A stretch of DNA of 64,000 nucleotides from a virus: the IMG/VR virus record IMGVR_UViG_3300035701_000001; one strand, written 5' to 3'. Shown here piece by piece: positions 3,436 to 48,929 of the stretch. Within the stretch, counting starts at the first letter, position 1, and each line of letters begins with the position of its first letter. The translations under genes and the position numbers were made by a program. The notes beneath the pieces were generated by a model. That model was not told the origin of the DNA. It did not search any database and saw only the letters and a list, made by a program, of their open reading frames with translations.

Positions 3436-3875
3436 AGCCAGGTTTCCTGGAATGATGAAATATATTTGAATCTGTACTTGAACGATACACAAATCCATTT
3501 TTCGAACAGTGGCTCGGAAGGCAGTGTTCTACAGAGTATGTTCCTCAGTGTTTCCAAGAAATTCATGACGTCTTGCTTGATGTCTTCTTCTTCGTTTTCT
3601 CTTGTTGGGACGTATCTGAACTTCGCTATTGTCTTCTTGGATATATTCAATTTTCCGTTCGTCTTGTTTCTTGTCTTGCTTACTTGTTGAATAAGAATGG
3701 TCAGACCATCCCATTCTGGATTGTCGAGGAATGCACTTCTTGCTTTGAGATAGGAGATCTCTGGTCTGCGGTGTATGAATCGGTCACACGCTTCGTATGC
3801 TGTGATCTTGGGCCAGACTTCTGGACCACTATACCGAAGGAAATCCTTGTTTTCCAAAAAGGATAGGTGGTTCAA
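3432..3875 (-). CDS. Hypothetical protein
   Basis: 147-aa ORF coupled to both neighbours by start/stop overlaps. Confidence 0.55.
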   Translation of the reverse strand: MNHLSFLENKDFLRYSGPEVWPKITAYEACDRFIHRRPEISYLKARSAFLDNPEWDGLTILIQQVSKTRNKTNGKLNISKKTIAKFRYVPTRENEEEDIKQDVMNFLETLRNILCRTLPSEPLFEKWICVSFKYRFKYISSFQETWL

Positions 3876-5068: not shown

Positions 5069-6101
5069 CGGGGAGAGTCTCCTGGGCGTGGGACTGGATG
5101 AGTTCGATGGCTTGTACCGGGGTGATCCAGGTCAGCCCGTGCCGTTCTGCGAATTGTTTGCGAGCTTCGACATCGGGGGGTTCGGCATAGCCGTTGTCGT
5201 AGAGGTTGCACCGGATGGCGGATGAGGCACATCCCATCATGCGGACTCCGTGTTCTTCGAGGTCTTCGAAGATTCCACGGAGCTTGGCACCTGAGGTGGG
5301 GTAGAGGTGTAGATCGTAGTTTCCTGCCGATCCTTCGATGGAGTAGCAGTAGGGGAACGGTTGTTCGACGACTCCCTTCTCATCGAGGGAGAAGTAGTGG
5401 GAGAAGACGTTTCCGAATCGGTTCTTGCGGATGGAGAGTCGTCGGAGTCCGGTCATGTCGTCGGGAATGTCGGCCAGCACGTCGACGAGGTGGCGAAGCT
5501 GGTTGGGTCCGAGAACATCTCCGTCTTTCGTGTACTGGGCGATGAAGATGCCTCGGGCTCGTGCGGCCTGGATCCGGTTGATGGCTGCCTTCATGACGTG
5601 GGTCGATTCCCAGGAGGTTGCAAGCTGGGAGATCGAGTCGACGACGATGAGGTCGTCTTTTTCGAGTCCGATGAGATCTTCTTCGAGTTCTTCCCACGTG
5701 TTGATCATGGAGAAGCGGGGGACGGGTGCCATGGGGTTGTGCTGTCCCACCACGCGGTTCCAGGAGGAGAAGACCATCTGGATCTGTTGTTCGGAGGACA
5801 TGTACCGGGTTGGGTTGGTCTTGAGCGCGATGGTCGTTTTTCCGGAGCCTGCATTTCCAGAGAGCAGGATGGTTCCTCCATGTTCGAGCTTGAGATGGGA
5901 CCAGGGGTGTGGAAGTGCCGGTGGATCTTCCAGGTCTGAGTATTTCCGGTTGGGGCGAGCCCTGCGGCTGTCGAGGTCGTTGTTGTTGCATCTTGGACAG
6001 GTGTGGACTTCTGGATCCAGGATGGGAAGCGTGCAGTTGTAACAGACCCGGTGGGGTTCGATGGCCAGGCTGTTTTGAATTTCGCTCTTATTTCCTTCCA
6101 T
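5058..6101 (-). CDS. radA: RadA/Sms-like ATPase lacking the Lon-like C-terminal domain
   Basis: Zn finger CYNC..CPRC, Walker A SGNAGSGKTT, Walker B LIVVDSISQL, TKDGDVLGPNQLRHLVD, and the RadA signature KNRFG. Confidence 0.85.
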   Translation of the reverse strand: MEGNKSEIQNSLAIEPHRVCYNCTLPILDPEVHTCPRCNNNDLDSRRARPNRKYSDLEDPPALPHPWSHLKLEHGGTILLSGNAGSGKTTIALKTNPTRYMSSEQQIQMVFSSWNRVVGQHNPMAPVPRFSMINTWEELEEDLIGLEKDDLIVVDSISQLATSWESTHVMKAAINRIQAARARGIFIAQYTKDGDVLGPNQLRHLVDVLADIPDDMTGLRRLSIRKNRFGNVFSHYFSLDEKGVVEQPFPYCYSIEGSAGNYDLHLYPTSGAKLRGIFEDLEEHGVRMMGCASSAIRCNLYDNGYAEPPDVEARKQFAERHGLTWITPVQAIELIQSHAQETLPDAT

Positions 6102-6433
6102 TTTTTATGACCTATGGTGCAGGATCTATTTTTTTTGGCGTGGTATTTTCGGATATATCGCGAGAAGTCCGGTAATACAAGTTTTTCTTCATGGGAGTCC
6201 TCTAAGTTGTTTTGAAGGTATCAACAGCCCTTTCGGTGTATTACGTCTTTATATGTTTGGACAGAACCTTTGAATAATGTAGTTCTGATTTACTTATCTT
6301 GTACCCCAGTGAATAGTATCAAAATGATTTGGGTCGGACGCCGGGTTTTCTTGCGCGCTTCCGTGGATCGCCTAGATTTCACAGGAAGGCGGTCTGTGGA
6401 AAGGCCGTTCGATTCCAACCACGGAGAGACAAC
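6102..6433. promoter_or_regulatory. AT-rich divergent intergenic region
   Basis: About 36% GC over 6101-6330 (hand count); lies between the minus-strand radA run and the plus-strand structural cluster. Confidence 0.55.
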
Positions 6434-6862
6434 ATGTTCGATGCATGGGCAATCGCGGGCGTTGGCGGCGGATCTGCAGCGCTGACCTACCTGGCATGCG
6501 GCTGGAAGCAGACGAAGGATGGCAAGCAGTGCATGCGCCTGTCCCTGGACGAGGGCTGCAGTCTCCTGGGTGACGTCCGTCTCCTGGGCGGCATCGGCAC
6601 GGGCATCGCGTCGATGTACGTCGGAGGTGCCGACACCAAGAAGGCCCTGCAGACCGTCTGCGCGGCAAGCCTGCTTTCGCTGGTCCAGACCGAGGTCATC
6701 CGGTGGCGTCTCGCCAAGCAGGGGAACACGGGCGTGGCGGAGAAGCTCCCCATCTTCCCGTCGGTCTTCCAGAAGGCCACCGAGGGGGCCTACGGCGCGC
6801 TTCCCGGCCCGCAGGCCTCGCACTCGACCAGCCAGCGCCAGTCGGCCTGGGCTCGTCGCTGA
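6434..6862 (+). CDS. Small hydrophobic putative virion/membrane protein
   Basis: GGAGAG RBS; strong GC3 bias; Gly/Ala-rich hydrophobic segments; GAYGA near the C-terminus. Confidence 0.8.
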   Translation: MFDAWAIAGVGGGSAALTYLACGWKQTKDGKQCMRLSLDEGCSLLGDVRLLGGIGTGIASMYVGGADTKKALQTVCAASLLSLVQTEVIRWRLAKQGNTGVAEKLPIFPSVFQKATEGAYGALPGPQASHSTSQRQSAWARR

Positions 6863-6953
6863 TCTTCGGATCTCCGGACAGGGCGGGGGATGACTCCGCC
6901 CTACGATGACATCTTCATCCACAAGACGCCCTTCGGGGCAAGAGGACACAACC

Positions 6954-7754
6954 ATGGAACAGTACGGAGGATTCCTCGGAATCCACACCAACCCGCAGGC
7001 ACGGCTTGCACAGATCGATGGGAAGCTCGCAATCGAACTGTCCAAGCCCTCCGGTGCCCAGCGCACCCAGAAGATCGCCCGCCTCATGGGGCTGCGTGAC
7101 AAGGTGCTCGCGAAGGTCGCCGCCCGCAAGGGCGCCGAACTCGCAGCGGCCTCCATCCCCGGCCTGGCCGGTGGACTGGCCAGCAGCGGCATCCGGGGCA
7201 TGGACGTCATCGAACACGAGTTCTCCCCCGAGGTCGTTCGCCAACACAACCTCGAAGGCGCGGCCCAGGGCCTCCGCCAGATGTCCGTCGCCCCTCCGGG
7301 CTCCGGCCGCCTGGTCCCGATCCCCTTCGTCACGTCCGCGAGCACGGTCCCCGTTCACGTCGTGACGGGTGGCGGTGGTGCGCTCGGTGCCGCAGTGGGC
7401 AACCTGCAGACCGAACCGGTGAACTGGGCGGTGCTTCGCATCGTCGCGCTCACCACGCAGACCATCGCGGCGGCCACGGGCGTCGTCGGCGTCATGCAGG
7501 ACTTCAAGATCGGAGGCAGCCCCAACCTGTTCCTCTCCGAGAACTGGGTCCTGATGGACGACTACGACACCGACAAGGAGCAGTTCGCAGGGCTCCGCGC
7601 GTACCCGGTCCTCATCAGCCCGAACATCGCCTACGTCACGACCAACACGTGGGCCCCAGCGGGTCAGAACCTGTACTACGCCGTCAGCCTCGTGACCGAG
7701 GTTCTCCGCGACGACGCCTTCGGACCGGGCCTTCCCGGCGGATACGCGCGGTAG
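6954..7754 (+). CDS. Candidate major capsid protein (single-jelly-roll-like, beta-rich C-terminal domain)
   Basis: AGAGGAC RBS, extreme codon bias, flanking hairpins; about 140-aa alternating-hydrophobic beta domain; clear paralog at 55866-56645; fold is inferred, not searched. Confidence 0.55.
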   Translation: MEQYGGFLGIHTNPQARLAQIDGKLAIELSKPSGAQRTQKIARLMGLRDKVLAKVAARKGAELAAASIPGLAGGLASSGIRGMDVIEHEFSPEVVRQHNLEGAAQGLRQMSVAPPGSGRLVPIPFVTSASTVPVHVVTGGGGALGAAVGNLQTEPVNWAVLRIVALTTQTIAAATGVVGVMQDFKIGGSPNLFLSENWVLMDDYDTDKEQFAGLRAYPVLISPNIAYVTTNTWAPAGQNLYYAVSLVTEVLRDDAFGPGLPGGYAR

Positions 7755-7759
7755 ACACT

Positions 7760-7848
7760 GCGCTCTGGAGGAATCAACCCCTCCAGGCGCGGGTCCGCCC
7801 CGCGAGCCGAACAACAACGGGGTCGGGGTGAAAGCCTCGGCCCCGTTG
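7760..7848 (+). terminator. Two stem-loops downstream of the capsid candidate
   Basis: GCGC(T)CTGGAGG/CCTCCAGGCGC at 7760-7790; 15-bp stem with GAAA tetraloop at 7815-7848; only a short T run follows. Confidence 0.6.
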
Positions 7849-7903
7849 CCGTTTCCAGATCGGTTTCGAATCCTTCTTCCATTCTTTTTCTCTGGGGAAG
7901 TCC

Positions 7904-9172
7904 ATGTCGGGAACCAGCGCAGTCAGCAACCAGCATCCACGGTATGGATTCACCGAGCAGAGGATGTATGCGACCCTGCCGGGCAGTGGTCTCTCGAATG
8001 TCAATCCGACCGGGGCATCGTTCGAACGTCCTCCCGGTGTCGGGACCGTGGCCGTCGTCGGAGTTTCGACCGCACTCGCAGGCGGTGCCCAGGTCAACAT
8101 GATCCTGGAAGGGTCGAACGACAACGTGAACTTCCTGGTTCTCGCCCAGCTTGCGGTGGCGGACTCCTTCACGGTGGCCGTTCCCCCTGGTCCCGCAGAG
8201 ACGAAGGTCCTGAACGCGGCGGTCGATCAACAGGTCGATGTCCAGCGGTTTGCCTACCTGCGTGTGCGTACGTTCTCCCCAGGGGGTACCTACGCCATCA
8301 ACGTGGTTGTGACGGGCATCGCGCTCGACTCCGAGAAGTTCATCTATCGGTGGAACTTCGGTCGTCTTGGTCTTACACCGACGTTCCAGAACGGTCTGGT
8401 CTACATCCGTCCGGCTGGAACGAAGTTCACGAACGTCCAGGTTTCTGCGACCATCGTGAACCTGGGGGGCATCCTCGGGTTCAACTTCATCCTGCAGGGA
8501 TGTCCGAACTACGTCGCCGGGTCCCTTGCAAATATCTGGGTGGATCTCTCCTCTGTTTTCGTGAACGGAGTCGGCTCCTACTTCCTGCAGCAGAACGGCA
8601 CCACGGAGATGGATCTCGGGAGCTACACGCACTTCCGGGTGCGTGTGATCGACGATCCGACCAATCCTCCGGGACCTCTCACGGCGTACATTGCCAGTGT
8701 CTACCTCACACTCGACTCGATGGACTGGGTCGATTCCCAGGAAGCGGCGAGTGGAGGAGGGGGTGGGGGAGGTATCGCAGACAACGCTCTGCTGAACGCG
8801 ACATTCGGGGCACCGGGTCCCGAGGTCGGCAACACCATCCCGGTCGACCTCTACCTGCTCGATGTCGCGGGAAATCCGCTTCCGGGGTCTCGCCGGGTCG
8901 AATGCCTCCTATACGATACTCCGAATGCGGGGGACCTCGATCTCGCGACGAACGCGGTGTTCTCGGCGGTCGGAGGCGGGGCTGTCGCCATCAGTGGCAT
9001 CGGCACGAACCGGGTCGTTCTCACGACGGACGCAACGGGGCATGCCATCCTCTCGGTTCTCGATGCAGCCGTCGAGTGGGTCTACCTCACGGCGGTCACG
9101 CCCAAGGGGCCCCTCACGGACCCGACCATCGTCTACAAGTCGCAGCAGTCGGCGCTGCAGTTCGTGCCGTGA
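7904..9172 (+). CDS. Putative spike/receptor-binding protein (beta-sandwich repeats plus Ig-like domain)
   Basis: Beta-rich; repeated ILEGSNDNVNF / ILQGCPN motifs; SGGGGGG linker; C-terminal VDLYLLDVAGNPLPG..TTDATGHAILSV resembles bacterial Ig-like (Big) domains. Confidence 0.6.
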   Translation: MSGTSAVSNQHPRYGFTEQRMYATLPGSGLSNVNPTGASFERPPGVGTVAVVGVSTALAGGAQVNMILEGSNDNVNFLVLAQLAVADSFTVAVPPGPAETKVLNAAVDQQVDVQRFAYLRVRTFSPGGTYAINVVVTGIALDSEKFIYRWNFGRLGLTPTFQNGLVYIRPAGTKFTNVQVSATIVNLGGILGFNFILQGCPNYVAGSLANIWVDLSSVFVNGVGSYFLQQNGTTEMDLGSYTHFRVRVIDDPTNPPGPLTAYIASVYLTLDSMDWVDSQEAASGGGGGGGIADNALLNATFGAPGPEVGNTIPVDLYLLDVAGNPLPGSRRVECLLYDTPNAGDLDLATNAVFSAVGGGAVAISGIGTNRVVLTTDATGHAILSVLDAAVEWVYLTAVTPKGPLTDPTIVYKSQQSALQFVP

Positions 9173-9207
9173 TCTAGTTGAATCCTCGAATTTTCTAGGG
9201 ACAGTCC

Positions 9208-10338
9208 ATGATCCATCCGTATTTCAACCTCACGGGCGACGAGGCCAGGGGGCTGTTGTACGGGCTGCTCGAAGTGGACAAGATCCAGTTGAAGGCGAAT
9301 CCTTCGATGCCTTCGATCCGGAAGTTGATTCAGGAAGGCAGTATTCGTTACGAGCGGTCGGATCCTCAGGAACACTGGCAGTCCTACCGGGAACTCGTCG
9401 AACAGGTCCAGCAGGGCGGGGTCGGGTACGGGGATTGCGAGGACTTCGCCCCGGCAATTGCAGCCGAGGATCAGGTTCGACGTGGATTGAAATCAATTCC
9501 TGTGGCGTATACCCCTAAAGAAGGACTGTTTCACGTGGTGACAGCGGTTCCGACTTCGGGGGCGTCCTATGGAGTCACCCGGTTTCCAGACGCCCTCGGG
9601 GCTCCCAGGATGTCTGGGTATGTCCTCGAAGATCCTTCGGCAGCCGCAGGGATGGAAACCTTTGGGAGTACCGGGGTTCGTGGCAAGTCGGTGGGAGAGG
9701 CGAGGGAGCGGTTTGGTGGGATGCGGGAATTCCGGGAATTTTACGGAATAAAGGATGGTTCTTCCAAGTACACTCCTTCTCGTATCCTGGTCGAATCCGC
9801 GATGGGGCTTGCCGCCATCGAGGCGGAGGACTTTGGAAGGGCCGAGGAACTGGCCCGGAAGGTCTCCTCGATGCTCCGTGACATCCGAAAGCGCATGCCA
9901 GGCTATGACATCGATCCGGATACGCAGGAATTGCTGGAATGGTACGCCGATTTGTCGAGGGGTGAGGACACGGGGTACGAAGTCGAGTTTCCCGAGGATT
10001 CTGGTTTTGGAGCGATGGACAGGGGGGGAGAAACCCTGCGGGTGGATGCCGAATACCGGGATCGGTTGCGTCGACTGGGGGGGCAGGGGACCTGGTCTAC
10101 ACCCGTTGTCTCGATGTACTTTCGGGTTCGCAGGACAGTCCGTATCGGGCAGGGGTGTTTGATCCCCTCGTCTCTCTTGGACTTCCCTGTTCGTTCCGTG
10201 AAACCGGCTCCGAGTTCTATCGAGGAATTCGCTGGTTGTTACGGTTCTCTTTCGCTGTTTGGAGATCCGTTGCGGGACATCGAGGAACTCGATGACCTGG
10301 AACTCATGGATGAACCTGGAGTTTTTGAAGAGGATTGA
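9208..10338 (+). CDS. Transglutaminase-fold cysteine protease, candidate virion maturation protease
   Basis: GDCEDFA (Cys), FHVVTAV (His), LEDPS (Asp) in papain-like triad order; sits inside the structural cluster. Confidence 0.7.
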   Translation: MIHPYFNLTGDEARGLLYGLLEVDKIQLKANPSMPSIRKLIQEGSIRYERSDPQEHWQSYRELVEQVQQGGVGYGDCEDFAPAIAAEDQVRRGLKSIPVAYTPKEGLFHVVTAVPTSGASYGVTRFPDALGAPRMSGYVLEDPSAAAGMETFGSTGVRGKSVGEARERFGGMREFREFYGIKDGSSKYTPSRILVESAMGLAAIEAEDFGRAEELARKVSSMLRDIRKRMPGYDIDPDTQELLEWYADLSRGEDTGYEVEFPEDSGFGAMDRGGETLRVDAEYRDRLRRLGGQGTWSTPVVSMYFRVRRTVRIGQGCLIPSSLLDFPVRSVKPAPSSIEEFAGCYGSLSLFGDPLRDIEELDDLELMDEPGVFEED

Positions 10339-10412
10339 ATTAGAATCGAGGAGAGGTCCGGGTGCCGGAAATGGGTGGCCGGACTATGTTTCCCCCTGGA
10401 GGACATCTGACC

Positions 10413-12758
10413 ATGTACGGAGCATCGGACATCTACAACTCTCCCCTGTCTCGCAAGGAAATGTTCGGGGTCGAGGGTGGCATCTTCGTGGGAGGGATCA
10501 AGTCCAGGAAGGCACGGATCGAGCGTCTCTGTGACAAGATCAAGGGCTTCGTTTCGAAGACCGATCCGGATGCAGGGCCTGCGAACCTCAACGTGAAGAA
10601 GGTCACGAAGTGGGCAGGCAAGATCTCCAAGCACGTCGGAAAGGTGCTTGAAAAGGAATCGTCCTGGAAGGTTTCTCCGACGGTTCAAGCCATCCTCGAC
10701 TTCAGCAACTCGAAGGACTTCGAACAGCTTCACCAGGACCTCGGATTCTCGGTGGGTGGGGCTCGTTCTGCGGCGGAAGATGTCTCCGAGGCGGGGGAGT
10801 ACGCTCCCGAGGAAGATACCTACCAGGACATCGAGCGCAGTGCCTGGGAGGATCCCTACTCCATGGCCGAGTATGGCCCAGAAGGAGGGTATACCACTCC
10901 CGAGGGGACCTACGTGGCTCAGGGCTTCCCGACCGCCTCGCAGTACTACGAGCAGTACCCCTCCGCGTTCCAGACGGGTCCCTCCTACCCGTCTCCGCTC
11001 TACCCGCGCTGGAACCGGTGGGCGGAACGGCATCCGCACAAGGCCTATGCATTGACCCATCCGCATCGAGCGGCTCGCCAGGCGGCTCGTCATGCGGCTC
11101 GGCAGTCGGCCTATACCTATCGTCCCACCACGCACGCGATGCCGATGCGGAGGGCGGGTCCGATCTCTCGCGGAGCCGGACTCCGGGGAGCCGGACGTCG
11201 GTTCGGTGGAGTCGAGGGGGCGATCTACGCAGGTGTGGGCGATGCTTTCGATCGGGTGGACCTCTTCGGAAAGAAAGACACTCGTAGCCACGATGAAATC
11301 TGGCGCGAATTTGCGGCAAAGAACCCGAGGAAGGCACTCAAGATGTTGGAAGACATTCGTCAACGTGGGGAAGGATCTGCAGAATCGCGTCGTGAAAGAG
11401 GGCGTGTCTTTGACTTGTGGGCCTCTCGTCATCCGAAGAAGGCACACAAGTACATGATGAAGATGAAGGAAGAAGCAAGGGAAAGATCAGAGGAACGGGA
11501 AGGGTTTTCCGGTTTCTTGGATGAGTCCATCTATGCGGGGGTGGGCGATGCGATGGATCGCCAGGACCTGTTCGGTGGACTGCAGCGCACCGATCTGTTC
11601 GGTGGACTGCAGCGCACCGATCTCTTCGGTTCGGCCACGGGCATGGATCCGACCATTGGGCTCGGATCGTTCATGCCCATTCGCGAGAACCAGAGCCTCG
11701 ACCGGCTCGACACGCTCTTCGAGGACTTCGAGGAGTCGGACGAGGATGCGGCTCTCCTGGACCTCGACCTGGATGACGAGTCTGGGGAACTGGAAGAGGT
11801 GGGCTTCCGCCCTGGTCGTGGCAGGCGGGGACCCGGTCGCATGGCCCGTATGGAATCTCGTCAGCAGCACAAGCTCGGCAGGGCTCAGCTTCTCCGTGAG
11901 AAGGCAGCCGCCATGGCGGCCACCCATCCGCGCCGGGCGGCTCGGCTGAATTGGCTCGCGGATCTGGCCGAGAAGCGCGCAGGGCGGATCGAACAGCACC
12001 AGCAGCAGATCGAATCTCGCAGAGGTACGGCGGCCTACGGGGCCCTGACCTTCTGGCAGCAGCACGAAGCGGCTCGTACCGACCAGATCGAGGCGGCTCT
12101 GCAGGCAGCGGATCCCGCTTCCCTCGATTCCATCAGCGCGCTCGTCGAGCACTACTACAACAACACGAATGATCCGGACGACCGGGTCCAGCGCAAGATG
12201 GACAAGCTGGCCGAGAAGATCATGGGCCGGCTCGGGGCCACCTGGCAGCCGATGGATTACGAGACCCAGACGGCGTTCAACACGGGAGCTTCTGCCTTCG
12301 AGGCGGCGACCAGCGATGTCGAGCACCTGGCTTCCTACGGTTTCCTCGCCCGTGACGTCGCCCGTCGTCTGACCCGTCTGCAGCGTGAGTACGCCCAGGT
12401 TCGCCGGGCGGGTGGCAAGAACGCGGAAGAGAAGGCCGAGAAGATCCTCGGGGAGATCGCGGTTCTCTCGAAGCGCATCGAGGCCTTGAAGGCCATGCCG
12501 AACGTCGGGGTGATGGGGCAGGAGTCCAGTGCTCCCTATGCTCCCATGCGGACGCCCGAGGAATTGGGCGATGGATCCCAGGCCGAGCCCAGGGCTTCGT
12601 ATGCGCCGACGGACGAGGAGATCTCCAGGGCCATTCAGCCGAGGAAGGTACTTCCCTTCGGTGTGGGCGAGGATGTTCCGGACGATCCCGAGGTGGATCA
12701 GTTGGAAGAAGACGAGGATTGGGATGATCTCAACGTGTCCAGCCTCGGTGGTGACTAG
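10413..12758 (+). CDS. Large modular virion protein / candidate core polyprotein
   Basis: GGAGGAC RBS; MYG start; alternating basic and acidic modules; internal repeats; strong codon bias. Confidence 0.8.
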   Translation: MYGASDIYNSPLSRKEMFGVEGGIFVGGIKSRKARIERLCDKIKGFVSKTDPDAGPANLNVKKVTKWAGKISKHVGKVLEKESSWKVSPTVQAILDFSNSKDFEQLHQDLGFSVGGARSAAEDVSEAGEYAPEEDTYQDIERSAWEDPYSMAEYGPEGGYTTPEGTYVAQGFPTASQYYEQYPSAFQTGPSYPSPLYPRWNRWAERHPHKAYALTHPHRAARQAARHAARQSAYTYRPTTHAMPMRRAGPISRGAGLRGAGRRFGGVEGAIYAGVGDAFDRVDLFGKKDTRSHDEIWREFAAKNPRKALKMLEDIRQRGEGSAESRRERGRVFDLWASRHPKKAHKYMMKMKEEARERSEEREGFSGFLDESIYAGVGDAMDRQDLFGGLQRTDLFGGLQRTDLFGSATGMDPTIGLGSFMPIRENQSLDRLDTLFEDFEESDEDAALLDLDLDDESGELEEVGFRPGRGRRGPGRMARMESRQQHKLGRAQLLREKAAAMAATHPRRAARLNWLADLAEKRAGRIEQHQQQIESRRGTAAYGALTFWQQHEAARTDQIEAALQAADPASLDSISALVEHYYNNTNDPDDRVQRKMDKLAEKIMGRLGATWQPMDYETQTAFNTGASAFEAATSDVEHLASYGFLARDVARRLTRLQREYAQVRRAGGKNAEEKAEKILGEIAVLSKRIEALKAMPNVGVMGQESSAPYAPMRTPEELGDGSQAEPRASYAPTDEEISRAIQPRKVLPFGVGEDVPDDPEVDQLEEDEDWDDLNVSSLGGD
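11565..11630 (+). repeat. 27-bp in-frame tandem repeat (DLFGGLQRT x2 + DLFG)
   Basis: GA(C/T)CTGTTCGGTGGACTGCAGCGCACC at 11565-11591 and 11592-11618, partial third copy. Confidence 0.95.
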
Positions 12759-12761
12759 ACC

Positions 12762-12998
12762 ATGAACGGAGCGATCCGCTGCGTGGATGCCCACGGCAAC
12801 CCGATGGACTTCTGTCCGGTCGGGGTGCCAGGGGCTGCAGGGGATCGCTCCGGGGTCCGTCCCGGTTTCACCACGTTTGGTGGCTATTCTCCTGACCCTC
12901 TCCGGGATCGTGGGTACGAGTACAACAAGGCCGGGTATCTGCAGGGTAGCTACGATTCCTGGCGTGCACAGTTCCAGCGGTGGAGAAACCCACGATGA
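12762..12998 (+). CDS. Small hypothetical protein of the structural cluster
   Basis: 78 aa; fills the gap between coupled neighbours; ATGA overlap with the next gene. Confidence 0.65.
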   Translation: MNGAIRCVDAHGNPMDFCPVGVPGAAGDRSGVRPGFTTFGGYSPDPLRDRGYEYNKAGYLQGSYDSWRAQFQRWRNPR

Positions 12999-14473
12999 GC
13001 CCGAAGCTTGACGATGTAGATGAGTTCGACATCTCGAAGGAAACCCTGTACGTAGGGGATCCAGACGAGAGCGAAGACGAGGACGAAGAGGAAGACAAGG
13101 ACAAAGCCTTGCTGGAAGCTTTGTTCAGTGATTCCTCTGACCCTTCGGCTGACGATTCCTTGGACGAGGAGATCGACTCTGCCCTGTCGGACGAGTCCCC
13201 TACACAGAGACTGTGGGAGTTTCCGGACGAATCCCTCAACGTTCAATCATTTGAACACCAGGAGACCCGCAAGCCCAAGGTGAGTCGCCGTGCATTTGCT
13301 TCCGATGCTCGCCGTTCGATGGACGTTTCCCATGAGGAATCCTATGGGCTCGGCTACGAGTCGGGCTACGTGCAGGCCCTGAAGGATATGGGCGTCGAAG
13401 GGGATACCCTATGGGATGCCTACGGCGGACTCGTGAAGAAGGGCATCCAGGGAGCAGGTGGTATCTTCTCCTCGGCAGCCCGTGGGTTCCTCGGGACCAC
13501 TCCCAAGGAAGCTGCGAAGGAACTTCGTGGAGAAGTCGGCAAGGAACTCCAGGGACAGATCCGCAAGCAACTCGGTGTGGCTGGCAAGCCGACCCAGATG
13601 GCCGAAGAATTGGGCAAGCAGTTGCGCCAGCAGGCCCTTGGGGTTGTCGAGGCGGATGAGTCGACACTTCCCCCCGTGTACGTGGAGGACAAGGAGGGGT
13701 TCGAGGAGGACCTGGCACTCGATGAAGGGTCCGAACCCATCGAACTGGACGACAGCCTTCTGGTCCAGGAAGAGTTCGGGGCGACGGCGAAGCACGGGTT
13801 CTTTGCGAGTCAGCCCCGGCATCGCATCCGGGAAGCTGCGAAGAAAGCGATGATCGGTGGGCAGGCATCTCTCAAGACGGCCACTCCGTCGGGTCCTGCT
13901 CCTTTCGTCGAGGATCCCGAGGCGGCTCCGAAGCTCTACTCGACCGGTCGGATCGTGGATGCGGTCTACGGGGAGATGAGCCTGGTCCCGTGTCCGTCCT
14001 GCAGCCGGATCCCCGAGAAGTTTGCTGGGATGGGCAAAGCCGAGAACTGTCTGGTCTGCACGCAGTACGGGGCCATCCTGATTCCGAAGTCCGACATCAG
14101 CCACTACGTGGCTTCGACGAGCTACGGTATCTTGCCTTTGCTCGTGGCAGCGGTTTCCTCAGCCACCCCGAAGATCATGGAACAGGCTTCGAAGGGAAAG
14201 CTTTTCCCGAAGGCCATGGCCAAGCTGAAGACCTGGCTGTCCGGCAAGAAGGCCAAGACCGAGGCACTTCCCTCTGATTCCAGTATCGATCTCGATCTGG
14301 ACAAGGAGAGCGAGGAAGAGTCCGAGACGGATCCCTATGACATCTCTGGAGTCGAAGAGATGTTCGGTGGAGTCGAGGAAGAACCAGAAGAGGACGTCGA
14401 GGAACAGGATCTTCCGGAGGAGTATGGGGTCGTCCGTGCTCTCGTTCCGAGTCGGTACCGGTTCAACCGGTAG
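12995..14473 (+). CDS. Acidic modular virion protein with CxxC..CxxC and a pX-like peptide
   Basis: D/E-rich ends; eight [YF]G sites; CPSC..CLVC; SYGILPLLVAAVSS. Confidence 0.8.
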   Translation: MSPKLDDVDEFDISKETLYVGDPDESEDEDEEEDKDKALLEALFSDSSDPSADDSLDEEIDSALSDESPTQRLWEFPDESLNVQSFEHQETRKPKVSRRAFASDARRSMDVSHEESYGLGYESGYVQALKDMGVEGDTLWDAYGGLVKKGIQGAGGIFSSAARGFLGTTPKEAAKELRGEVGKELQGQIRKQLGVAGKPTQMAEELGKQLRQQALGVVEADESTLPPVYVEDKEGFEEDLALDEGSEPIELDDSLLVQEEFGATAKHGFFASQPRHRIREAAKKAMIGGQASLKTATPSGPAPFVEDPEAAPKLYSTGRIVDAVYGEMSLVPCPSCSRIPEKFAGMGKAENCLVCTQYGAILIPKSDISHYVASTSYGILPLLVAAVSSATPKIMEQASKGKLFPKAMAKLKTWLSGKKAKTEALPSDSSIDLDLDKESEEESETDPYDISGVEEMFGGVEEEPEEDVEEQDLPEEYGVVRALVPSRYRFNR

Positions 14474-14483
14474 GAGGGGCTCC

Positions 14484-14852
14484 ATGCGTTACGGTGGATG
14501 TACCTACGGGATGCGGGCTCCACGGCTCGGGGGAGGGGGGGGCGCTCACCCCATGATGACTCCACGTTCCTTTGGTTCTCCCCGTTCCTTTGGTTCTCCT
14601 CGTGGAATCGGAGCTTTTCCTCGTCTGGGGGGTGGGATTCATCCCCATCGGTTTCCTCCTTTTCACAGGGGGACTGGACGTGCCTGGTTTCATCCACGCC
14701 GTCGGTTTGTTCCGACGTACTACTCCCCAGGCTCTTACTGGGCCTATCCGTGGTATGTCCATCCCGTGGATGAAATTCCCTATGAAGTGACGGAACTGGA
14801 TCTCGATGAGTTGTCGGATCAGGCGGTCTTGGAGCTTGGATTTTCCGGATAG
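14484..14852 (+). CDS. Small Arg/Gly/Pro-rich protein with acidic tail
   Basis: AGGAGG RBS; MRYGGCTYG; PRSFGS tandem repeat (18 bp x2 at 14565-14600). Confidence 0.7.
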   Translation: MRYGGCTYGMRAPRLGGGGGAHPMMTPRSFGSPRSFGSPRGIGAFPRLGGGIHPHRFPPFHRGTGRAWFHPRRRFVPTYYSPGSYWAYPWYVHPVDEIPYEVTELDLDELSDQAVLELGFSG

Positions 14853-14862
14853 GAGCAGGAAC

Positions 14863-15645
14863 ATGAATCGGTGGTACGGTGATCAATACGGTGCGGTGCG
14901 GATGCCTTTCCGTCCCTCGGTTCGTTCGGGTGTTCTCTCCGGGAAGACTCCTCTGTCGACCGCCCGGTACCCGAACTTGATGTCCCGGATCCGGCAGGCA
15001 GCCTCTGCTCGCCAGGGATCGTCTCTCGTTCCTCCGCTTGCTCCTGGATCGTCTGGATGGGAAGGCCTGTCCCCGCAGTGGGCGGCCAGTCCCTATGCGG
15101 CTCCCGAGTATGTTCCCGAGTCTCCGGAGTACCAGGAGCCGGTGGAGATTCCCGAGGAGTTCTTCGACGATCTCTCCGAACAGGCACTCTATGACATTGG
15201 ACTCGGGGGGAGCCAGGTGCCGCTGGAGGAGATGGAGGAATTCGGATTCTTCAGCCCGGAACGTCTGAAGCGAGACAAGGTTGAAACCAATGGGGTACCT
15301 CACAAGGGAGCAGAGCTTGCAGCCGCTGGCTACGGCTCCATGCAGACGATGGATCCCTCCCATGGTCGTCGCCTTCCCATCCTCGCTTCTCATGCGCGGG
15401 CCATGGGTTCTTCCCAGAGGGGCCCCGATGAGCGTGCGAGGGAACGGCGGGGCATCATCGATCGGTTTGGATTGGAAGTTCCCCGTCCGGAAATCCTTCC
15501 TTCCTCCTACCGGACCCCGGTGGTCGATACGCGTCCTGACATGTCGTTCGAATCGAGTTTGAAGATGGGAGCGGGGATCGCAGTCGGTTTCCTGGCGGTC
15601 GGTGGGATCGCTGCTCTGCTGGGACATGCTTTTTCGGGACGGTGA
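14863..15645 (+). CDS. Putative virion membrane protein (C-terminal TM helix)
   Basis: AGGA RBS; MNRWYGDQYG; C-terminal GAGIAVGFLAVGGIAALLG. Confidence 0.8.
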   Translation: MNRWYGDQYGAVRMPFRPSVRSGVLSGKTPLSTARYPNLMSRIRQAASARQGSSLVPPLAPGSSGWEGLSPQWAASPYAAPEYVPESPEYQEPVEIPEEFFDDLSEQALYDIGLGGSQVPLEEMEEFGFFSPERLKRDKVETNGVPHKGAELAAAGYGSMQTMDPSHGRRLPILASHARAMGSSQRGPDERARERRGIIDRFGLEVPRPEILPSSYRTPVVDTRPDMSFESSLKMGAGIAVGFLAVGGIAALLGHAFSGR

Positions 15646-15693
15646 ACGTTCCGCGTGATACGAATTCCGAGTAACCTTGCACAAGAGGACACC

Positions 15694-16722
15694 ATGGCCA
15701 CACAACCTCCGTACAACGCCTTCGACGACATCTTCGACGACGAGAACCTGAATCTCGATCTCGAATTGGAGGACATCGACACGGACTCCCCGTACTACGG
15801 TGCCGGAGACGACGATGATCTTCCCGCACTCGAAGCCGAGGTGGATGCCGAGACGTTCGGACAGGAATCGGAGATCGAGTCTCCGGAAGACATCGAGTGG
15901 GCTTCCACCCCGTGGAGTCTGCCCGAGGCCGAAGAGACCTCCGAGGAGCAGTCCCAGTTCGCGGAGCCGATGGCCCAGGGCAACGTCGAGGATCTCTTCG
16001 AACTCGGCAACGTGCTGCTGCCGACCGCCTACCAGGACGGAACCCTCGAAACCCTCGTGAAGTGGGCGACGAGTTCGTTCGGTGGGGACGATGCGCGCGG
16101 TATCGTGACTGCCATGCAGGACATGAAGAACCCCTCGCTCGCGGACTGGAAGTCCATGAACGAGTCCCAGCGCGAGACGTTCGTGATGGACGCCATCAAG
16201 CGCGCGGCGATTCCCGGAATCCCGTTCCGTTCCTGGGACAAGCTCCAGGATGCCTGGAACCAGGGGAACGGACCCATCAACACCGCCTGGAAGCTCGTCA
16301 CGACCACACCGTCCGCGCTGTGGAGCCTCGTGTCTCGTGACTTCCCGACGCTGACCGCCGCCTGGATCGACGAGGTCATGCCGATTCCCGGTGTGGAACT
16401 GACCCGGCACGAGGTCCTGAACCAGAAGGCCATGTTCTACTGGTTCCTGGAGATGCTCGGCTACGACGTCGTCAAGGGAATCGCAGCCCAGATGACCGTG
16501 TACTTCGATCAGTACGGCTATCCCACCCCGGTGGGCGAGCAGGCCTTCGAGGTCCCGTCGACCGAGGTCGAGGTCGAGGAAGGGGGCGAAGCGTTCTTCC
16601 CCGGTCCCGCGATGGAGATCGCACCGCCCAGGGCCGAGTCGGTCCTTCCGCGTCCGCAGACCATCCTCGCGTTCGGATACGGGCTCATGATCGCCGGGTC
16701 GCTCACGGGCCTGATCAAGTAG
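15694..16722 (+). CDS. Putative abundant virion membrane protein (C-terminal TM helix)
   Basis: AGAGGACACC RBS; extreme codon bias; acidic N-terminus; C-terminal ILAFGYGLMIAGSLTGLI. Confidence 0.8.
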   Translation: MATQPPYNAFDDIFDDENLNLDLELEDIDTDSPYYGAGDDDDLPALEAEVDAETFGQESEIESPEDIEWASTPWSLPEAEETSEEQSQFAEPMAQGNVEDLFELGNVLLPTAYQDGTLETLVKWATSSFGGDDARGIVTAMQDMKNPSLADWKSMNESQRETFVMDAIKRAAIPGIPFRSWDKLQDAWNQGNGPINTAWKLVTTTPSALWSLVSRDFPTLTAAWIDEVMPIPGVELTRHEVLNQKAMFYWFLEMLGYDVVKGIAAQMTVYFDQYGYPTPVGEQAFEVPSTEVEVEEGGEAFFPGPAMEIAPPRAESVLPRPQTILAFGYGLMIAGSLTGLIK

Positions 16723-16728
16723 GTCCCG

Positions 16729-16965
16729 ATGGGCGCTCGCCCACGATATGGCTCTGCGACCGCTTCTCCTGTCGAAGTTCTCGACCGTGACCAGGTCATG
16801 AAAGAGAGTTTTCGCAGGGAGGCGGTCGAGTCACTTTCCCAGCAACTCGCGGCGGAGCGCCAGGAGCAGGCCGGGATCGGCCAGGCGGAGACCCTCACCG
16901 CGTTGCTCGTGACGACCGTGGTGGGCCTTGCGGTGTTCTCTGCGCTCACGAAGGGGGGGAAATGA
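16729..16965 (+). CDS. Small membrane protein
   Basis: 78 aa; C-terminal LTALLVTTVVGLAVFSAL; RYG near the N-terminus. Confidence 0.75.
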   Translation: MGARPRYGSATASPVEVLDRDQVMKESFRREAVESLSQQLAAERQEQAGIGQAETLTALLVTTVVGLAVFSALTKGGK

Positions 16966-17570
16966 CTCGCAAGGTACGGTACGGGCAGTCTTCTCTCGCA
17001 GCGTACGTTCCGGGGCTCCGTTCGTCTCCCGTGGATCAACACCTCGTTCGACCCCGTTCGAGTCCAGAGGGGCATCGGGGAATCGAGTTGACGATGTTTC
17101 CGCCTCAGGATGAGGTCCTGGGCGAGATCGAAGGGGACCTTGACGAGGACGAGGAGGAATTCGTCTTCGAGGAGGAGGATTCGGATATTCCGGATGAGCC
17201 CCTGAGCCCGATCGATGGATTCCTGGAGTCGATGTTTGAGATCCCTCCTTCTTTCGGGGTTCTCTACCCTTCGGCACCCTATGCGAAGCCGATGCCGAGG
17301 ACGCATGCGGATTCGGCTGTTCTCCGGACTCAGTCTGGATTCACTGGATATCGAGGGGCACGGGACCGTTTCCTCATCCCGCCTGCCGAGTCGGCTTCCT
17401 GGGATCCTTCTCTCTCTCCTCCGGGTTCTGCTCCACAGGAACCCGAACAGGAGACCTACGGCAAGTTTCCGGAGTCCTTCGAGTACGGGGGGGGATACGA
17501 GGGGAAAGCCCTCGCTTTGCTCGGTCTTGTGCTGCTCTATCGCATGGCGACCTCGGGGGAAGGCGAATAG
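16962..17570 (+). CDS. Putative membrane protein (C-terminal TM helix)
   Basis: ATGA-coupled; acidic middle; C-terminal ALALLGLVLLYRMA. Confidence 0.75.
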   Translation: MTRKVRYGQSSLAAYVPGLRSSPVDQHLVRPRSSPEGHRGIELTMFPPQDEVLGEIEGDLDEDEEEFVFEEEDSDIPDEPLSPIDGFLESMFEIPPSFGVLYPSAPYAKPMPRTHADSAVLRTQSGFTGYRGARDRFLIPPAESASWDPSLSPPGSAPQEPEQETYGKFPESFEYGGGYEGKALALLGLVLLYRMATSGEGE

Positions 17571-17594
17571 ATTTCCCCGTAGAGGACATTGACC

Positions 17595-18773
17595 ATGGCG
17601 AAGTACAGGGACCTGAGTGAATACGGTGGGATGATGCCGACACGGAGTTCGGCGGGGTTCATCCGCCGGTCGGGGATCCCGGAGATCCGTGGGGTTTCCC
17701 CCACTCCGTCTTTTCCTGACGATCCCCGTCTGAGGGGGTTGACCCCCGAACAGCTTCGCGGATCCCCTCTTCCCGATTCGACTACCCTTGCGGGCCGTGC
17801 CTACTCGGTGATGACGCCGGATCCGTACGCCGAAGTGGTCCGCCGGGAACTGGAGATCGGCAGGCGGTTGCCGAGGCCGTACCAGGCTCCGACGGCTCTG
17901 GCAGGCAGGCGGCTCATGCCGACCGAGTACTACGAATCGAACTACCAGCCACTCGACTCCGAGCGTGCCATCTATCCGGCTGCGGACATCGCAGGACGGC
18001 GTTCGACGCTTTCGGGGACCTTCGGCCAGGACATCGCCCAACCGATGCCGTGGTCTGCCCGAGAGCAGATGGGGTATACCGAGTCCCGGTCTCGGGGTCC
18101 CGGTCTCTCCAGCGAGTGGGACACACAAGCTCACCGGGAACGCATGTCGGGCAAGGTCTCTGCTCCAGGGACCTTTTCCCAGAGGGTGGATCCTCGGTAT
18201 CCGTTCTTCCATGTCATGGCGAAGGGAGATGGGACGGGTCTTCCGGAAGGGTATGCCTCTGCGGGAAATGCACGGGTCAAGGTGACGGTGGGTCGGTTCG
18301 AGACGGGGGGTGCGACGACCAGCCGGGAGTTCTACGTCGGAGGAGGGTTTACCGGGTTCTTCGATCTGCAGGGATGGGATCAACTGACCTTCGAGGTGGT
18401 CTACATCTCCCCCGGAACGGTCGTGGAGTTTTCCTGGACCACCACGGCGATTCAGGCGGGGAACAAGACCCTGTACTACCTCGAAGTACTGCACAATGGT
18501 GTAGGAAGTATCCAGCCTGTTCCCGAGGGAGCCTATTCGGTGATCGTCAACAAGATGGTGGGCTGGACTTCTGGATCGTTTTCCTGGTGGACGGACATCG
18601 GGGGTATTCCTACTTCTCTCATCATTCGGTTTGATGATGGAACCACAGGGTTGGTAAACCAGTTTGGAACACCGATTCCCGTGGCTGGAACGATGTATGC
18701 CCCTCCGGTCATCGTCGGGGGGGGGGTGGCTGGGCAGGACGTACCTGTCCTGTGGAATCTCCGTCCGATCTAG
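17595..18773 (+). CDS. Putative minor capsid/vertex protein (P/R-rich N-half, beta-rich C-half)
   Basis: AGAGGAC RBS; SEYGG near the N-terminus; about 190-aa aromatic beta-strand-rich C-terminal domain. Confidence 0.7.
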   Translation: MAKYRDLSEYGGMMPTRSSAGFIRRSGIPEIRGVSPTPSFPDDPRLRGLTPEQLRGSPLPDSTTLAGRAYSVMTPDPYAEVVRRELEIGRRLPRPYQAPTALAGRRLMPTEYYESNYQPLDSERAIYPAADIAGRRSTLSGTFGQDIAQPMPWSAREQMGYTESRSRGPGLSSEWDTQAHRERMSGKVSAPGTFSQRVDPRYPFFHVMAKGDGTGLPEGYASAGNARVKVTVGRFETGGATTSREFYVGGGFTGFFDLQGWDQLTFEVVYISPGTVVEFSWTTTAIQAGNKTLYYLEVLHNGVGSIQPVPEGAYSVIVNKMVGWTSGSFSWWTDIGGIPTSLIIRFDDGTTGLVNQFGTPIPVAGTMYAPPVIVGGGVAGQDVPVLWNLRPI

Positions 18774-18785
18774 GAGATTTTCAAC

Positions 18786-19184
18786 ATGTTCGTCGATTCT
18801 TACCTGCAGGATCTTCTTCAAGCCACTCCAGAGGAACTGGAATCTTTGACTCAGGCTTCCGAGTCGTTCGGTGGGCTGTGGAGTCCTCGTGCATTGCGGA
18901 AGCGGATGCTTCCCGAGCGCAGGGCCCGTGACGAGTTGATGGCCTGGTTTCGCGCAAGCGATGTCCCTGTGATTCCCCATGACAGTCCCCGCCTGGACAC
19001 CCCTCTCTGTTCCGTGATCGTCGCTTTGTCGAACCTGACGAGGGATCTTGCGGATGATGCGGAGCAGAAGGCCCTGGAACTCGCCTCTCGGTACGATATT
19101 GCCTGTCACATCTCGTCGAAGGCGGGGTCTCTTGTCTTCTCGTTTGGCAAGACCCCAAAGATCGCGGCCTCGTTGCTCGGCTGA
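18786..19184 (+). CDS. Hypothetical protein, last gene of the structural run
   Basis: AGGAG RBS; 132 aa; ESFGGLW. Confidence 0.75.
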   Translation: MFVDSYLQDLLQATPEELESLTQASESFGGLWSPRALRKRMLPERRARDELMAWFRASDVPVIPHDSPRLDTPLCSVIVALSNLTRDLADDAEQKALELASRYDIACHISSKAGSLVFSFGKTPKIAASLLG

Positions 19185-19185
19185 T

Positions 19186-19638
19186 TCAGTTCGAGGCGAG
19201 CCAGATTCTCGCTGCATGCAGGGTGAGAGTGACGGGAATGGAGAGGGACAAGAGGATCAGGATTCTCCGGATTCTCTTGTTTGTCTGGGTCTGATTCTTG
19301 TTCTGCAGTCGGAGTCCTACGGTGGACAGAGTATATCCACCTCGGAAGTAGTCCCAGGAAGTTGATTCGTAGGCGTTTGTGGGAAACGCTTCTGGGGTGA
19401 TCTGGTTTGTCTCGGGGTCTTTCGTGATTCGGTAGGTCATCCGATCCAGTCGAAGAATGACCTGGGTGGTTCCGGTATTCTGCAGGAGATCGAGAGTGGC
19501 CTTGTAGACGGGCTCGACGTGGGATCCGAGGTACTGATGCAGGAGGGACAGTCCGAGGTGGATGCTGGCTCCGCAGAAGACGAAGGAGAGCATCCATGTC
19601 CAGACCCATTCATCGAACTCTGAAACAAGGGAGTCCAT
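19186..19638 (-). CDS. Hypothetical membrane protein
   Basis: Two hydrophobic segments (WVWTWMLSFVFCGASIHLGL; ILILLSLSIPVTLTL). Confidence 0.65.
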   Translation of the reverse strand: MDSLVSEFDEWVWTWMLSFVFCGASIHLGLSLLHQYLGSHVEPVYKATLDLLQNTGTTQVILRLDRMTYRITKDPETNQITPEAFPTNAYESTSWDYFRGGYTLSTVGLRLQNKNQTQTNKRIRRILILLSLSIPVTLTLHAARIWLASN

Positions 19639-48836: not shown

Positions 48837-48881
48837 GGAGTCCTCTCTCTTCCTGCTTATCCCAGAAGGGGATTGACTGGG

Positions 48882-48910: not shown

Positions 48911-48929
48911 GGCTGCCCTGGGAGGACAC

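Follow-up and report, generated by a model that had tools for sequence, protein, structure and literature searches.

A conserved aromatic-glycine motif in the virion module of a large uncultivated virus and its possible reading by a transglutaminase-like enzyme

We analysed a 64-kb stretch of viral DNA (IMG/VR record IMGVR_UViG_3300035701_000001, 64,000 nucleotides, hereafter the window) and in particular positions 6434–19184, which encode on the + strand a module of 14 proteins totalling 4078 amino acids (aa). The dipeptides Tyr-Gly and Phe-Gly ([YF]G) recur in these proteins, and a preliminary description of the sequence had proposed that they mark cleavage sites used in virion maturation. 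The [YF]G pattern is a real, selected and directional protein-level signal. Its extended form is [DE]-x-[YF]-G-[AGSF], with Trp excluded from the aromatic position. The best reading of [DE]x[YF]G is cleavage after Gly by a Cys-His-Asp enzyme encoded at 9208–10338 within the module (the 9208 enzyme), a reading that we put close to, but short of, an even chance.

The hand counts on which the proposal was based agree with ours: there are 61 [YF]G in the module, 13 in the 1208 aa of DnaE and 3 in the 1187 aa of NrdJ. The residues of each protein were permuted with its composition kept, in 2000 shuffles. These gave 31.7 ± 5.0 [YF]G for the module, and none reached 61. The bulk enrichment, earlier called modest, is in fact about 1.9-fold. 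The bias towards N-termini was borne out, as 8 of the 14 module proteins carry [YF]G within their first 15 residues compared with 1.5 ± 1.2 in the shuffles, a value again reached by none of the 2000. The excess therefore persists against composition-preserving shuffles both in bulk and at N-termini. All of the N-termini quoted in the preliminary description exist, namely MEQYG (6954), HPRYG (7904), MYG (10413), MRYG (14484), MNRWYGDQYG (14863), MGARPRYG (16729), MTRKVRYG (16962), MAKYRDLSEYG (17595) and, on the minus strand, MPRLWKYG (57252). The other 56 proteins of the window contain 75 [YF]G against 72.4 expected, with N-terminal sites in 3 of 56 against 3.4 expected, and the module differs from them with p=4e-5 (Fisher test). 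When the dipeptides of the module were ranked by over-representation, YG came first and FG third.

The analysis was replicated on six related metagenomic loci (L001 and L007–L011), in which genes had been called by the Joint Genome Institute (JGI), National Center for Biotechnology Information (NCBI) or Logan pipelines. The modules of these loci contain 394 [YF]G where 183 are expected, and a site falls within the first 20 residues in 39 of their 78 proteins, where 10.7 are expected. The flanking genes contain 59 against 52.7 expected, with N-terminal sites in 4 of 49 (module against flanks, Fisher p=7e-7). Measured against the module's own high density, the enrichment in the first 20 residues is still about twofold, and a weaker [YF]G peak lies 10–15 residues from the C-terminus. 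An origin in chance, composition or annotation would draw on the high Gly content of the module (10.2%, compared with 7.3% elsewhere in the window) and on free choice of start codons, some of which had been picked in the preliminary description. It is refuted by the shuffles, by the six-locus replication and by conservation of the sites in relatives at 40–80% identity, and we give it practically no weight. A gene caller that uses codon usage and Shine-Dalgarno sequences and is blind to the motif chose the same start codons, except that it missed the gene at 14484, whose start was assigned by an AGGAGG 6 nucleotides upstream of the ATG; the three outside pipelines agree.

The form of the motif was defined on the same six loci. 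FG (z=12.3) and YG (z=9.6) are in excess, WG is found at 0.54 times expectation, LG at about 1.0 times and AG at 0.94 times, and there are 317 GG against 305.5 expected. Twenty-four per cent of all Phe and Tyr residues precede Gly. [YF]G is enriched 2.15-fold compared with 1.15-fold for the reverse dipeptide G[YF], and the spaced forms [YF]xG and Gx[YF] are at expectation. Two positions before the aromatic residue Glu is enriched 3.5-fold and Asp 2.5-fold. [DE]x[YF]G occurs 169 times (26 expected); [YF]G[AGSF] occurs 200 times (62 expected). Within the window, [DE]x[YF]G was counted 23 times in the module against 3.7 ± 2.0 expected, and 14 times outside it against 9.8. The Gly codon at the sites may be GGA, GGG, GGT or GGC. 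The signal is therefore at the protein level, and a DNA- or RNA-level signal is ruled out.

The directionality, the exclusion of Trp and the flanking preferences together argue for a dedicated reader and against a generic composition in which aromatic residues stand next to Gly. FG-nucleoporins and FUS-like domains are precedents for the latter, with aromatic and Gly 'stickers' that would make weak multivalent contacts or condensates, here for a viroplasm or core, with no dedicated reader. Most sites do lie in long acidic or Gly-rich disordered stretches, and a basic RG/FG-rich protein that could act as partner is encoded at 14484–14852. Besides the directional signal and its extended context, however, single sites are invariant at exact positions, including residues 2–3 of the 781-aa protein, and another acidic disordered protein of the window (188 aa, 51269–51835) has no [YF]G. 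We consider a sticker grammar improbable.

Sites are kept in homologs, some of them without exception. In an alignment of the 781-aa protein from 8 genomes (A5), M1, Y2, G3, D6, Y8, P11, F18 and G19 are invariant, and the spacer between MYG and the following [DE]xFG varies in length and sequence. The N-terminal site is retained in all genomes compared for the 9208 enzyme (9/9), the 781-aa protein (8/8) and a paralog of the 422-aa protein (6/6), and in 6 of 10 for the 422-aa protein itself. For the 266-, 260-, 342-, 202- and 392-aa proteins it is retained in 5/8, 4/8, 6/8, 6/8 and 2/7 respectively (first 20 residues). Conservation of the motif is strong but not universal, and its turnover in these alignments is like that of short linear motifs.

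In four genomes of the 492-aa family, FGAT, [YF]G-(a/s)(i/l)l and sYG(f/i) are conserved in 4/4, and YGe is present only in the window and L001, with hGe or hGd in L004 and L006. The 492- and 342-aa families have conserved islands, (S/T)(S/T)FGA(T/A) and sYG(I/F), and acidic stretches with a variable number of DDEFG or EEEYGA units. Relatives of the 342-aa protein start M..D(L/M)FG↓(Y/F), where the arrow marks the position after Gly, and contain tandem SLFAEE(E/A)YGA repeats. Orthologs of the 202-aa protein read ..AQYG↓QSSH, ..DHYG↓QSSH, MSDYYG↓LGSSH and MSFG↓YSSH. In the 781-aa protein of the window one motif has been triplicated as three tandem copies of DLFGGLQRT (27-bp unit). The EEYG↓VVRALVPSRYRFNR site of the 492-aa protein lies 14 residues from its C-terminus.

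The position of a possible cut is indicated by the 266-aa capsid-like protein, the most conserved product of the module (71–81% identity to its counterparts in L001–L006). Among 60 cluster representatives of its family, about 49 begin M-x(1-8)-[YF]G, with x mostly acidic or polar, and 3 have [YF]AG. Nine of the 60 are without [YF]G, and 5 of these 9 are leaderless, starting exactly at the residue that follows the Gly of their relatives (P0063, MGILGIP; P0069–71, M[SA][LF][FL]TRDP; P0093; the starts include MSAIALT). P0065 (MGLFGDPG) is also leaderless with the same start point, its FG being in a different register. Minus the initiator Met, the leaderless starts are the N-terminus that a cut after Gly would create. 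These orthologs, from one family, are the sole evidence on register, and fit Gly at P1 and the aromatic residue at P2. Distant relatives of the protein (110 representatives) show a weaker excess of [YF]G (325 against 220), clear in some, for example MSNDDLYGDDFDLAAFGDDDDLFG.

Cleavage in another register or by another enzyme would mean a [YF]↓G cut, a cut before the aromatic residue, or the action of a host or other viral protease. An aromatic residue followed by Gly is a classic chymotrypsin-type site, and vasohibins, likewise transglutaminase-like, cleave off a Tyr that follows acidic residues, such as those enriched here ahead of the aromatic. The leaderless orthologs, however, align with the residue after Gly and not with Gly, and Pfam scans of the module and flanking proteins, a part of the window, yielded no serine or chymotrypsin-like protease. 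We regard a different register or enzyme as a poor candidate.

The C-terminal ~170 residues of the 266-aa protein are found in 122 cluster representatives of 90–700 aa, many with long unrelated N-terminal extensions. A 259-aa protein at 55866–56645 (+) has a weak BLASTP match (E=0.035, 74 residues) to the C-terminal part of the 266-aa protein. Neither the 266-aa nor the 422-aa protein had a Pfam match at E<=10, and in the ESM Atlas both matched only viral clusters without a name.

The 422-aa protein is a candidate major capsid protein. In an alignment with 7 metagenomic homologs (A1), hP[RK][YF]G[FW] is present at residues ~11–16 in 8/8 sequences; P12 and G15 are invariant and position 14 is always Tyr or Phe. 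An AlphaFold2 (AF2) model, with a predicted local distance difference test (pLDDT) of 85, has residues 1–13 disordered (leader pLDDT 36), YG at 14–15 and the first strand from 16. The model comprises beta sandwiches at 16–141 and 144–273, predicted to be two jelly rolls, and a C-terminal immunoglobulin (Ig)-like domain. Foldseek matched it to P3 of PRD1 and PR772 and to an iridovirus capsid protein with prob 1.0 but template modelling (TM) scores of only 0.16–0.24. Taken singly, the two jelly rolls match viral coat proteins at Z ~8, and the Ig domain gives Z ~10; the cellular two-jelly-roll proteins PNGase F and XepA score as well against the protein. The virus is probably a large, uncultivated, tailless bacterial virus with a jelly-roll capsid, the fold evidence from the model being not conclusive.

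A paralog of the 422-aa protein (441–543 aa), whose leader in the relatives reads ..P(R/Q)[FY]GW, lies beside it in most relatives (L004 2851–4482, L007 8667–9992) and a few kb upstream in L001 (644–1975); none was found adjoining 7904–9172 in the window. Several orthologs of the 422-aa protein (P0001, P0004–P0006; L004 1502–2731; L006 728–2080) start MGS(S/N/T)N(S/T)P. These starts resemble the eukaryotic N-myristoylation consensus, probably by coincidence, as the virus has bacterial-type genes.

The 9208 protein consists of an N-terminal domain and a long tail. Its first ~150 residues are shared by 39 homologs at 47–70% identity, whose tails vary (total lengths 271–655 aa). D76, C77, E78, D79, H109 and D142 are invariant in all 39. 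In an AF2 model the domain has pLDDT 83–98 over residues 11–150, the fold ends at about 150 and the chain is disordered from 156. C77 starts the helix 77–92, H109 starts the strand 109–115 and D142 stands just after the strand 138–141. The model thus has the transglutaminase-like layout of a Cys that opens a helix, followed by strands that bear or adjoin the His and Asp. In structural comparisons (Foldseek, and an exhaustive search against 48,161 chains) all matches belonged to the transglutaminase-like clan. The highest Z values were obtained with PeiP (6.8; root-mean-square deviation 3.5 Å over 113 residues), PeiW (6.5–6.6), the putative protease BDI_1141 (6.2) and Transglutaminase 3 (5.9), followed by a Cytophaga cysteine protease (3isr, 5.7), TgpA (5.4), CPR-C4 (5.1) and LapG (4.9). 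In the ESM Atlas the domain matched, at TM 0.54, a viral cluster made up to 92% of Transglut_core and, at TM 0.66–0.80, small viral proteins without a name. From these scores, and with no match at the sequence level, the domain is likely to be of the transglutaminase-like fold class, and its activity could be that of a protease, isopeptidase, amidase or cross-linking enzyme.

The enzyme itself carries the motif. In the two AF2 models, of the 422-aa protein and of the 9208 protein, [YF]G stands at an order/disorder boundary. At the domain/tail junction of the 9208 protein, AAGM-x-x-[FY]G is nearly invariant, with Phe or Tyr in 35 and Gly in 31 of the 39 homologs. The tails of these homologs contain 292 [YF]G against 96 expected, a threefold excess, with the consensus [DE][DE]x[FY]G[AGF][LD].

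A specific directional motif, sites at boundaries, leaderless orthologs and an enzyme that bears the motif favour the cleavage reading. We infer, from the sequence comparisons and the predicted fold, that the 9208 enzyme is a protease and the motif its site, cut after Gly. [DE]-x-[YF]-G with a small or hydrophobic residue after it would then be a short linear recognition motif common to most proteins of the virion module. The enzyme would bind the aromatic residue in its S2 pocket and Gly in S1 and cut after Gly, stripping 3–15-residue N-terminal leaders from capsid, membrane-anchored and core proteins. It would be freed from its own tail at the AAGM-x-x-[FY]G junction, and the long acidic disordered proteins (781, 492, 342 and 202 aa) would be chopped small during particle maturation.

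Several observations count against cleavage by this enzyme. The fold matches are moderate (Z 5–6.8, Foldseek E >= 0.02), Pfam gave no match to the domain at E<=10, and a profile of the 9208 protein searched against PDB sequences matched only through its acidic low-complexity tail and not through the domain. The best matches are two cell-wall isopeptidases encoded by viruses, PeiP and PeiW; the 9208 protein could accordingly be an entry or exit lysin, and the clan also holds cross-linking transglutaminases. With three residues, the leader MYG would offer a protease hardly any grip and is difficult to account for as a propeptide. Some [YF]G lie inside folded regions, as in GVGYGDC next to the catalytic Cys, and must there be structural. 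Retention of the N-terminal site ranges by family from 2/7 to 9/9, and for the 422-aa protein four of ten orthologs still have the N-terminal extension, with PKFQF, PRMTF, PLSQF or LRDGF in place of [YF]GF. Of the maturation proposal in the preliminary description, what stands is that the motif is real, conserved and placed at boundaries, that a Cys-His-Asp enzyme is encoded at 9208, and that Gly at P1 with an aromatic P2 fits in one family; its loss from these four orthologs and the shortness of the MYG leaders argue against a strict requirement for the motif. A complex prediction for residues 1–160 of the 9208 protein with the first 40 residues of the 781-aa protein (score 0.02, mark 0.32) was counted neither way.

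The same statistics and conservation would be expected if the motif were an uncleaved docking signal, with a capsid or membrane protein offering a pocket for [DE]x[YF]G, so that its bearers would be recruited into the assembling particle. A single N-terminal copy would then serve as an address tag and many copies in disordered acidic proteins as a multivalent scaffold, and the 9208 enzyme would be incorporated through the motifs of its tail to do something else, for example to digest the cell wall at entry. A MYG N-terminus of three residues is easier to understand as a docking tag than as a propeptide, and docking also accommodates orthologs that lose the motif while the extension stays and suits the lysin-type isopeptidases that are the closest folds to the 9208 domain. 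Docking alone explains neither why leaderless orthologs start exactly after Gly nor why a site is conserved at the domain/tail junction of the 9208 protein. Docking without cleavage is the chief competitor of the cleavage reading and one to be taken seriously, although we judge it somewhat unlikely. Docking and cleavage are not exclusive and can coexist. The leaders of adenovirus pVI and pVII both dock in hexon and are cut.

By analogy of function, cleavage at [DE]x[YF]G would be closest to the Gly-directed maturation of adenoviruses, poxviruses and African swine fever virus (ASFV) and to the capsid-targeting sequences of T4. Adenain cuts at (M/I/L)xGG↓x and (M/I/L)xGx↓G, poxvirus I7 at AG↓x and ASFV pS273R at GG↓x. 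As in those systems, the structural genes of a virus of the (here predicted) double-jelly-roll lineage are accompanied by the gene for a single cysteine enzyme, a minimal Gly-containing consensus recurs in many precursor proteins of capsid, core and scaffold, also in short N-terminal leaders, and acidic and basic core proteins would be cut small. The parallel drawn in the preliminary description therefore holds as a functional analogy, but not for the enzyme, which is not of the adenain/Ulp1 fold. Clan CE enzymes have the order His..Asp/Glu..Cys, whereas the 9208 protein has Cys77, His109, Asp142 in a transglutaminase-like fold. In addition, the P2 residue is here aromatic and preceded, two positions upstream, by an acidic one, and neither GG nor AG is in excess. 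The host is a bacterium, and cleavage is a proposal. T4 gp21 removes ~10-residue N-terminal leaders ending L/I-x-E↓, and phiKZ-type processing occurs at (S/A/G)-x-E↓. The T4 system resembles ours in that a short leader ending in a consensus is found on several unrelated proteins (8/14 in the window, 39/78 in the six loci) and in that scaffold is degraded at many internal sites, in T4 as a fact and here as a proposal. The T4 and phiKZ enzymes, however, are serine proteases of tailed HK97-fold phages with sites that end in Glu and not in Gly. No portal, terminase or HK97-type gene was matched in Pfam or PHROGs among the ten module proteins of at least 124 aa. Given its different catalytic order and fold, the lack of enrichment of GG and AG, and the failure to detect HK97-type genes, the system appears to belong to neither clan CE nor the T4 type.

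Members of the transglutaminase-like clan range from proteases, such as the bacterial CPR-C4 and LapG, of which LapG cleaves at di-alanine, to the virus-encoded pseudomurein isopeptidases PeiP and PeiW; the target of PeiW is an isopeptide bond of the cell wall. The 9208 protein shares with LapG/BTLCP, CPR-C4, PeiP and PeiW the predicted core, in which the catalytic Cys begins a helix and the strands after it carry or adjoin His and Asp. There is no sequence-level similarity to any of them, and the motif-laden disordered tail is absent from LapG and PeiW. Enterovirus 2A has the same dipeptide, Tyr-Gly, at a viral processing site, but 2A is a chymotrypsin-like enzyme that cuts between Tyr and Gly in a polyprotein, whereas the boundary here would lie after Gly. 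CsoS2 of alpha-carboxysomes has repeated [VI][TS]G motifs, which stay uncleaved and bind carboxysome shell proteins. Like CsoS2 and the FG-nucleoporins, the disordered proteins of the module carry many tiny motif copies and could bind a shell or partner multivalently; the motifs of CsoS2 and FG-nucleoporins, unlike those described here, are not concentrated at N-termini and have no adjoining Cys-His-Asp enzyme.

The features of the window are listed in Table 1.

Table 1. Features of the 64-kb window. Arrows mark the proposed cut after Gly.
Feature	Position	Strand	Remarks
DUF5771	1304–1729	+	
142-aa small hydrophobic protein, module opener	6434–6862	+	MFDAWAIAG...; one [YF]G near C-terminus; 54–59% identity to L001–L005
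266-aa capsid-like protein	6954–7754	+	leader MEQYG; YG codons 6963–6968
422-aa protein, candidate major capsid protein	7904–9172	+	leader MSGTSAVSNQHPRYG, proposed cut before F; YG codons 7943–7948
376-aa protein (9208 enzyme)	9208–10338	+	residues 1–150 likely transglutaminase-like domain; 151–376 disordered tail with 7/10 of its [YF]G
Catalytic-type residues of 9208 enzyme	C77 9436–9438; H109 9532–9534; D142 9631–9633	+	invariant
Domain/tail junction FG of 9208 enzyme (F152-G153)	9661–9666	+	AAGM-x-x-[FY]G at residues 145–153
781-aa largely disordered acidic/basic protein, scaffold- or core-like	10413–12758	+	11 [YF]G
Sites in 781-aa protein	MYG 10416–10421; EMFG 10464–10469; DLFGGLQRT x3 11565–11633	+	
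492-aa acidic protein	12995–14473	+	8 [YF]G, including EEFG↓AT, SYG↓ILPLLVAAV, EEYG↓VVRALVPSRYRFNR
122-aa basic Gly/Arg/Pro-rich protein	14484–14852	+	leader MRYG↓G; YG codons 14490–14495; 4 [YF]G
260-aa protein, C-terminal hydrophobic anchor	14863–15645	+	MNRWYGDQYG; codons 14875–14880 and 14887–14892
342-aa acidic protein, C-terminal hydrophobic anchor	15694–16722	+	6 [YF]G; window copy without N-terminal site
78-aa protein	16729–16965	+	leader MGARPRYG↓S; YG codons 16747–16752
202-aa acidic protein, C-terminal hydrophobic anchor	16962–17570	+	leader MTRKVRYG↓QSS; YG codons 16980–16985
392-aa protein, beta-rich C-terminal half	17595–18773	+	leader MAKYRDLSEYG↓G; YG codons 17622–17627
132-aa protein, last gene of module	18786–19184	+	2 [YF]G, positions 28 and 120
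DnaE	32408–36070	-	domain match
GP88 domain match	37721–38965	-	E 3e-16
HicA-like stretch, inside 833-aa open reading frame	48468–50969	+	below cutoff
199-aa protein, same grammar as module	56653–57252	-	MPRLWKYG, DEGYG↓FLPLLIPIAAAVL, poly-Lys run, acidic repeats, SEAYG↓WMDRVAQVAVHETFQRR

The G+C content of the window is about 58%, and there are many long spurious open reading frames (ORFs). The + strand frames of 6434–19184 are those conserved in related metagenomic loci. The frame at 6894–7754 has 71–81% identity to related loci, that at 7832–9172 37–40%, and that at 9199–10338 55–68% over its first ~165 residues; the 392-aa protein is 36% identical to L001 18133–19287. Long antisense ORFs at 16518–19217 (-, 899 aa), 14335–16410 (-, 691 aa) and 6290–7345 (-) were rejected as genes and taken as G+C artefacts, because related loci match the + strand frames far better and the antisense frames weakly or never. 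A public gene call in L010, 6333–7391 (-), likewise seems to be an antisense artefact, lying over the ortholog of the 266-aa protein. Ten module proteins, those of at least 124 aa, were without a match in Pfam or PHROGs, the small genes at 12783, 14484, 16729 and 18786 being outside the scan. An IMG/VR scan with alignment A1 found no relative, and a metagenome scan with alignment A2 gave relatives. The contig from which the window is taken is 204.5 kb long, and those of relatives are up to 385 kb.

Outside the module, the 199-aa protein runs colinear with the final, C-terminal third of the 492-aa protein, but BLASTP gave only E=1.5. A hydrophobic peptide of the form G↓(I/F/V)(L/I)PL(L/A)(I/V/A)P.. 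recurs after Gly in several proteins. Copies are found in the 492-aa protein (SYG↓ILPLLVAAV, 14114–14200, +), 38 kb away in the 199-aa protein (GYG↓FLPLLIPIAAAVL, followed by poly-Lys), and in distant relatives of the 266-aa protein (P0120, P0143, P0157 and P0163: QFG↓VIPLAIPLVL, QFG↓ILPLLALLPG, ELG↓IVPLLALIPAG). The only PDB match of GYGFLPLLIPIAAAVL (57100–57144, minus strand) was an 80-aa chain 'PX' (9lr9_E, GFLPLLAPIIAAAIGA) with a non-significant E=0.86, and another copy, SYGILPLLVAAV, matched designed armadillo repeats instead. A resemblance of the peptide in the 199-aa protein to adenovirus pX is unproven on these matches and was set aside. No paper mentioning 9LR9 was found.

Upstream of the module and divergent from it, a P-loop ATPase (5058–6101, -) is encoded in all related loci at 48–52% identity, with a ~400-aa orphan (3872–5068, -). 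It matches RadA in the PDB (E 1.7e-5) and, below threshold, KaiC in Pfam, and may be a packaging ATPase. Together with the predicted jelly rolls and the paralog of the 422-aa protein, it is in keeping with a tailless virus that has a jelly-roll capsid. A DUF726 (alpha/beta-hydrolase-like) protein at 1745–2809 (+) is syntenic upstream of the module in L001, L002, L005, L008, L009 and L010. ThyX and a class II ribonucleotide reductase are also encoded in the window, and no tRNA genes were found in it.

To our knowledge, no maturation protease that acts at a consensus site has been described for prokaryotic jelly-roll (PRD1-like) viruses. Our literature searches returned nothing relevant on a transglutaminase-like capsid maturation protease or on large double-jelly-roll phages with DnaE. 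A 2018 survey of prokaryotic double-jelly-roll viruses mentions no protease (PMC5894146). The most far-reaching picture, possible though still somewhat doubtful, is of a clade of uncultivated bacterial viruses with 200–385 kb contigs and jelly-roll capsid proteins that would mature like adenoviruses and giant viruses by means of an independently recruited transglutaminase-fold protease. This protease would cut at least ten virion proteins after [DE]-x-[YF]-G, stripping leaders and dismantling scaffold and core polyproteins. It would be the first such maturation system proposed for a prokaryotic jelly-roll virus. If cleavage does occur, this capsid lineage would have evolved maturation at a consensus site two or more times, by way of cysteine enzymes that are unrelated to each other. 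In that case the motif would be a simple sequence rule that predicts the mature virion proteome of an uncultivated clade, and would also flag virion proteins among orphan genes, the extended motif being 6-fold enriched in the window only in the structural module. If instead the motif acts by docking, it would be a new virion-targeting signal.

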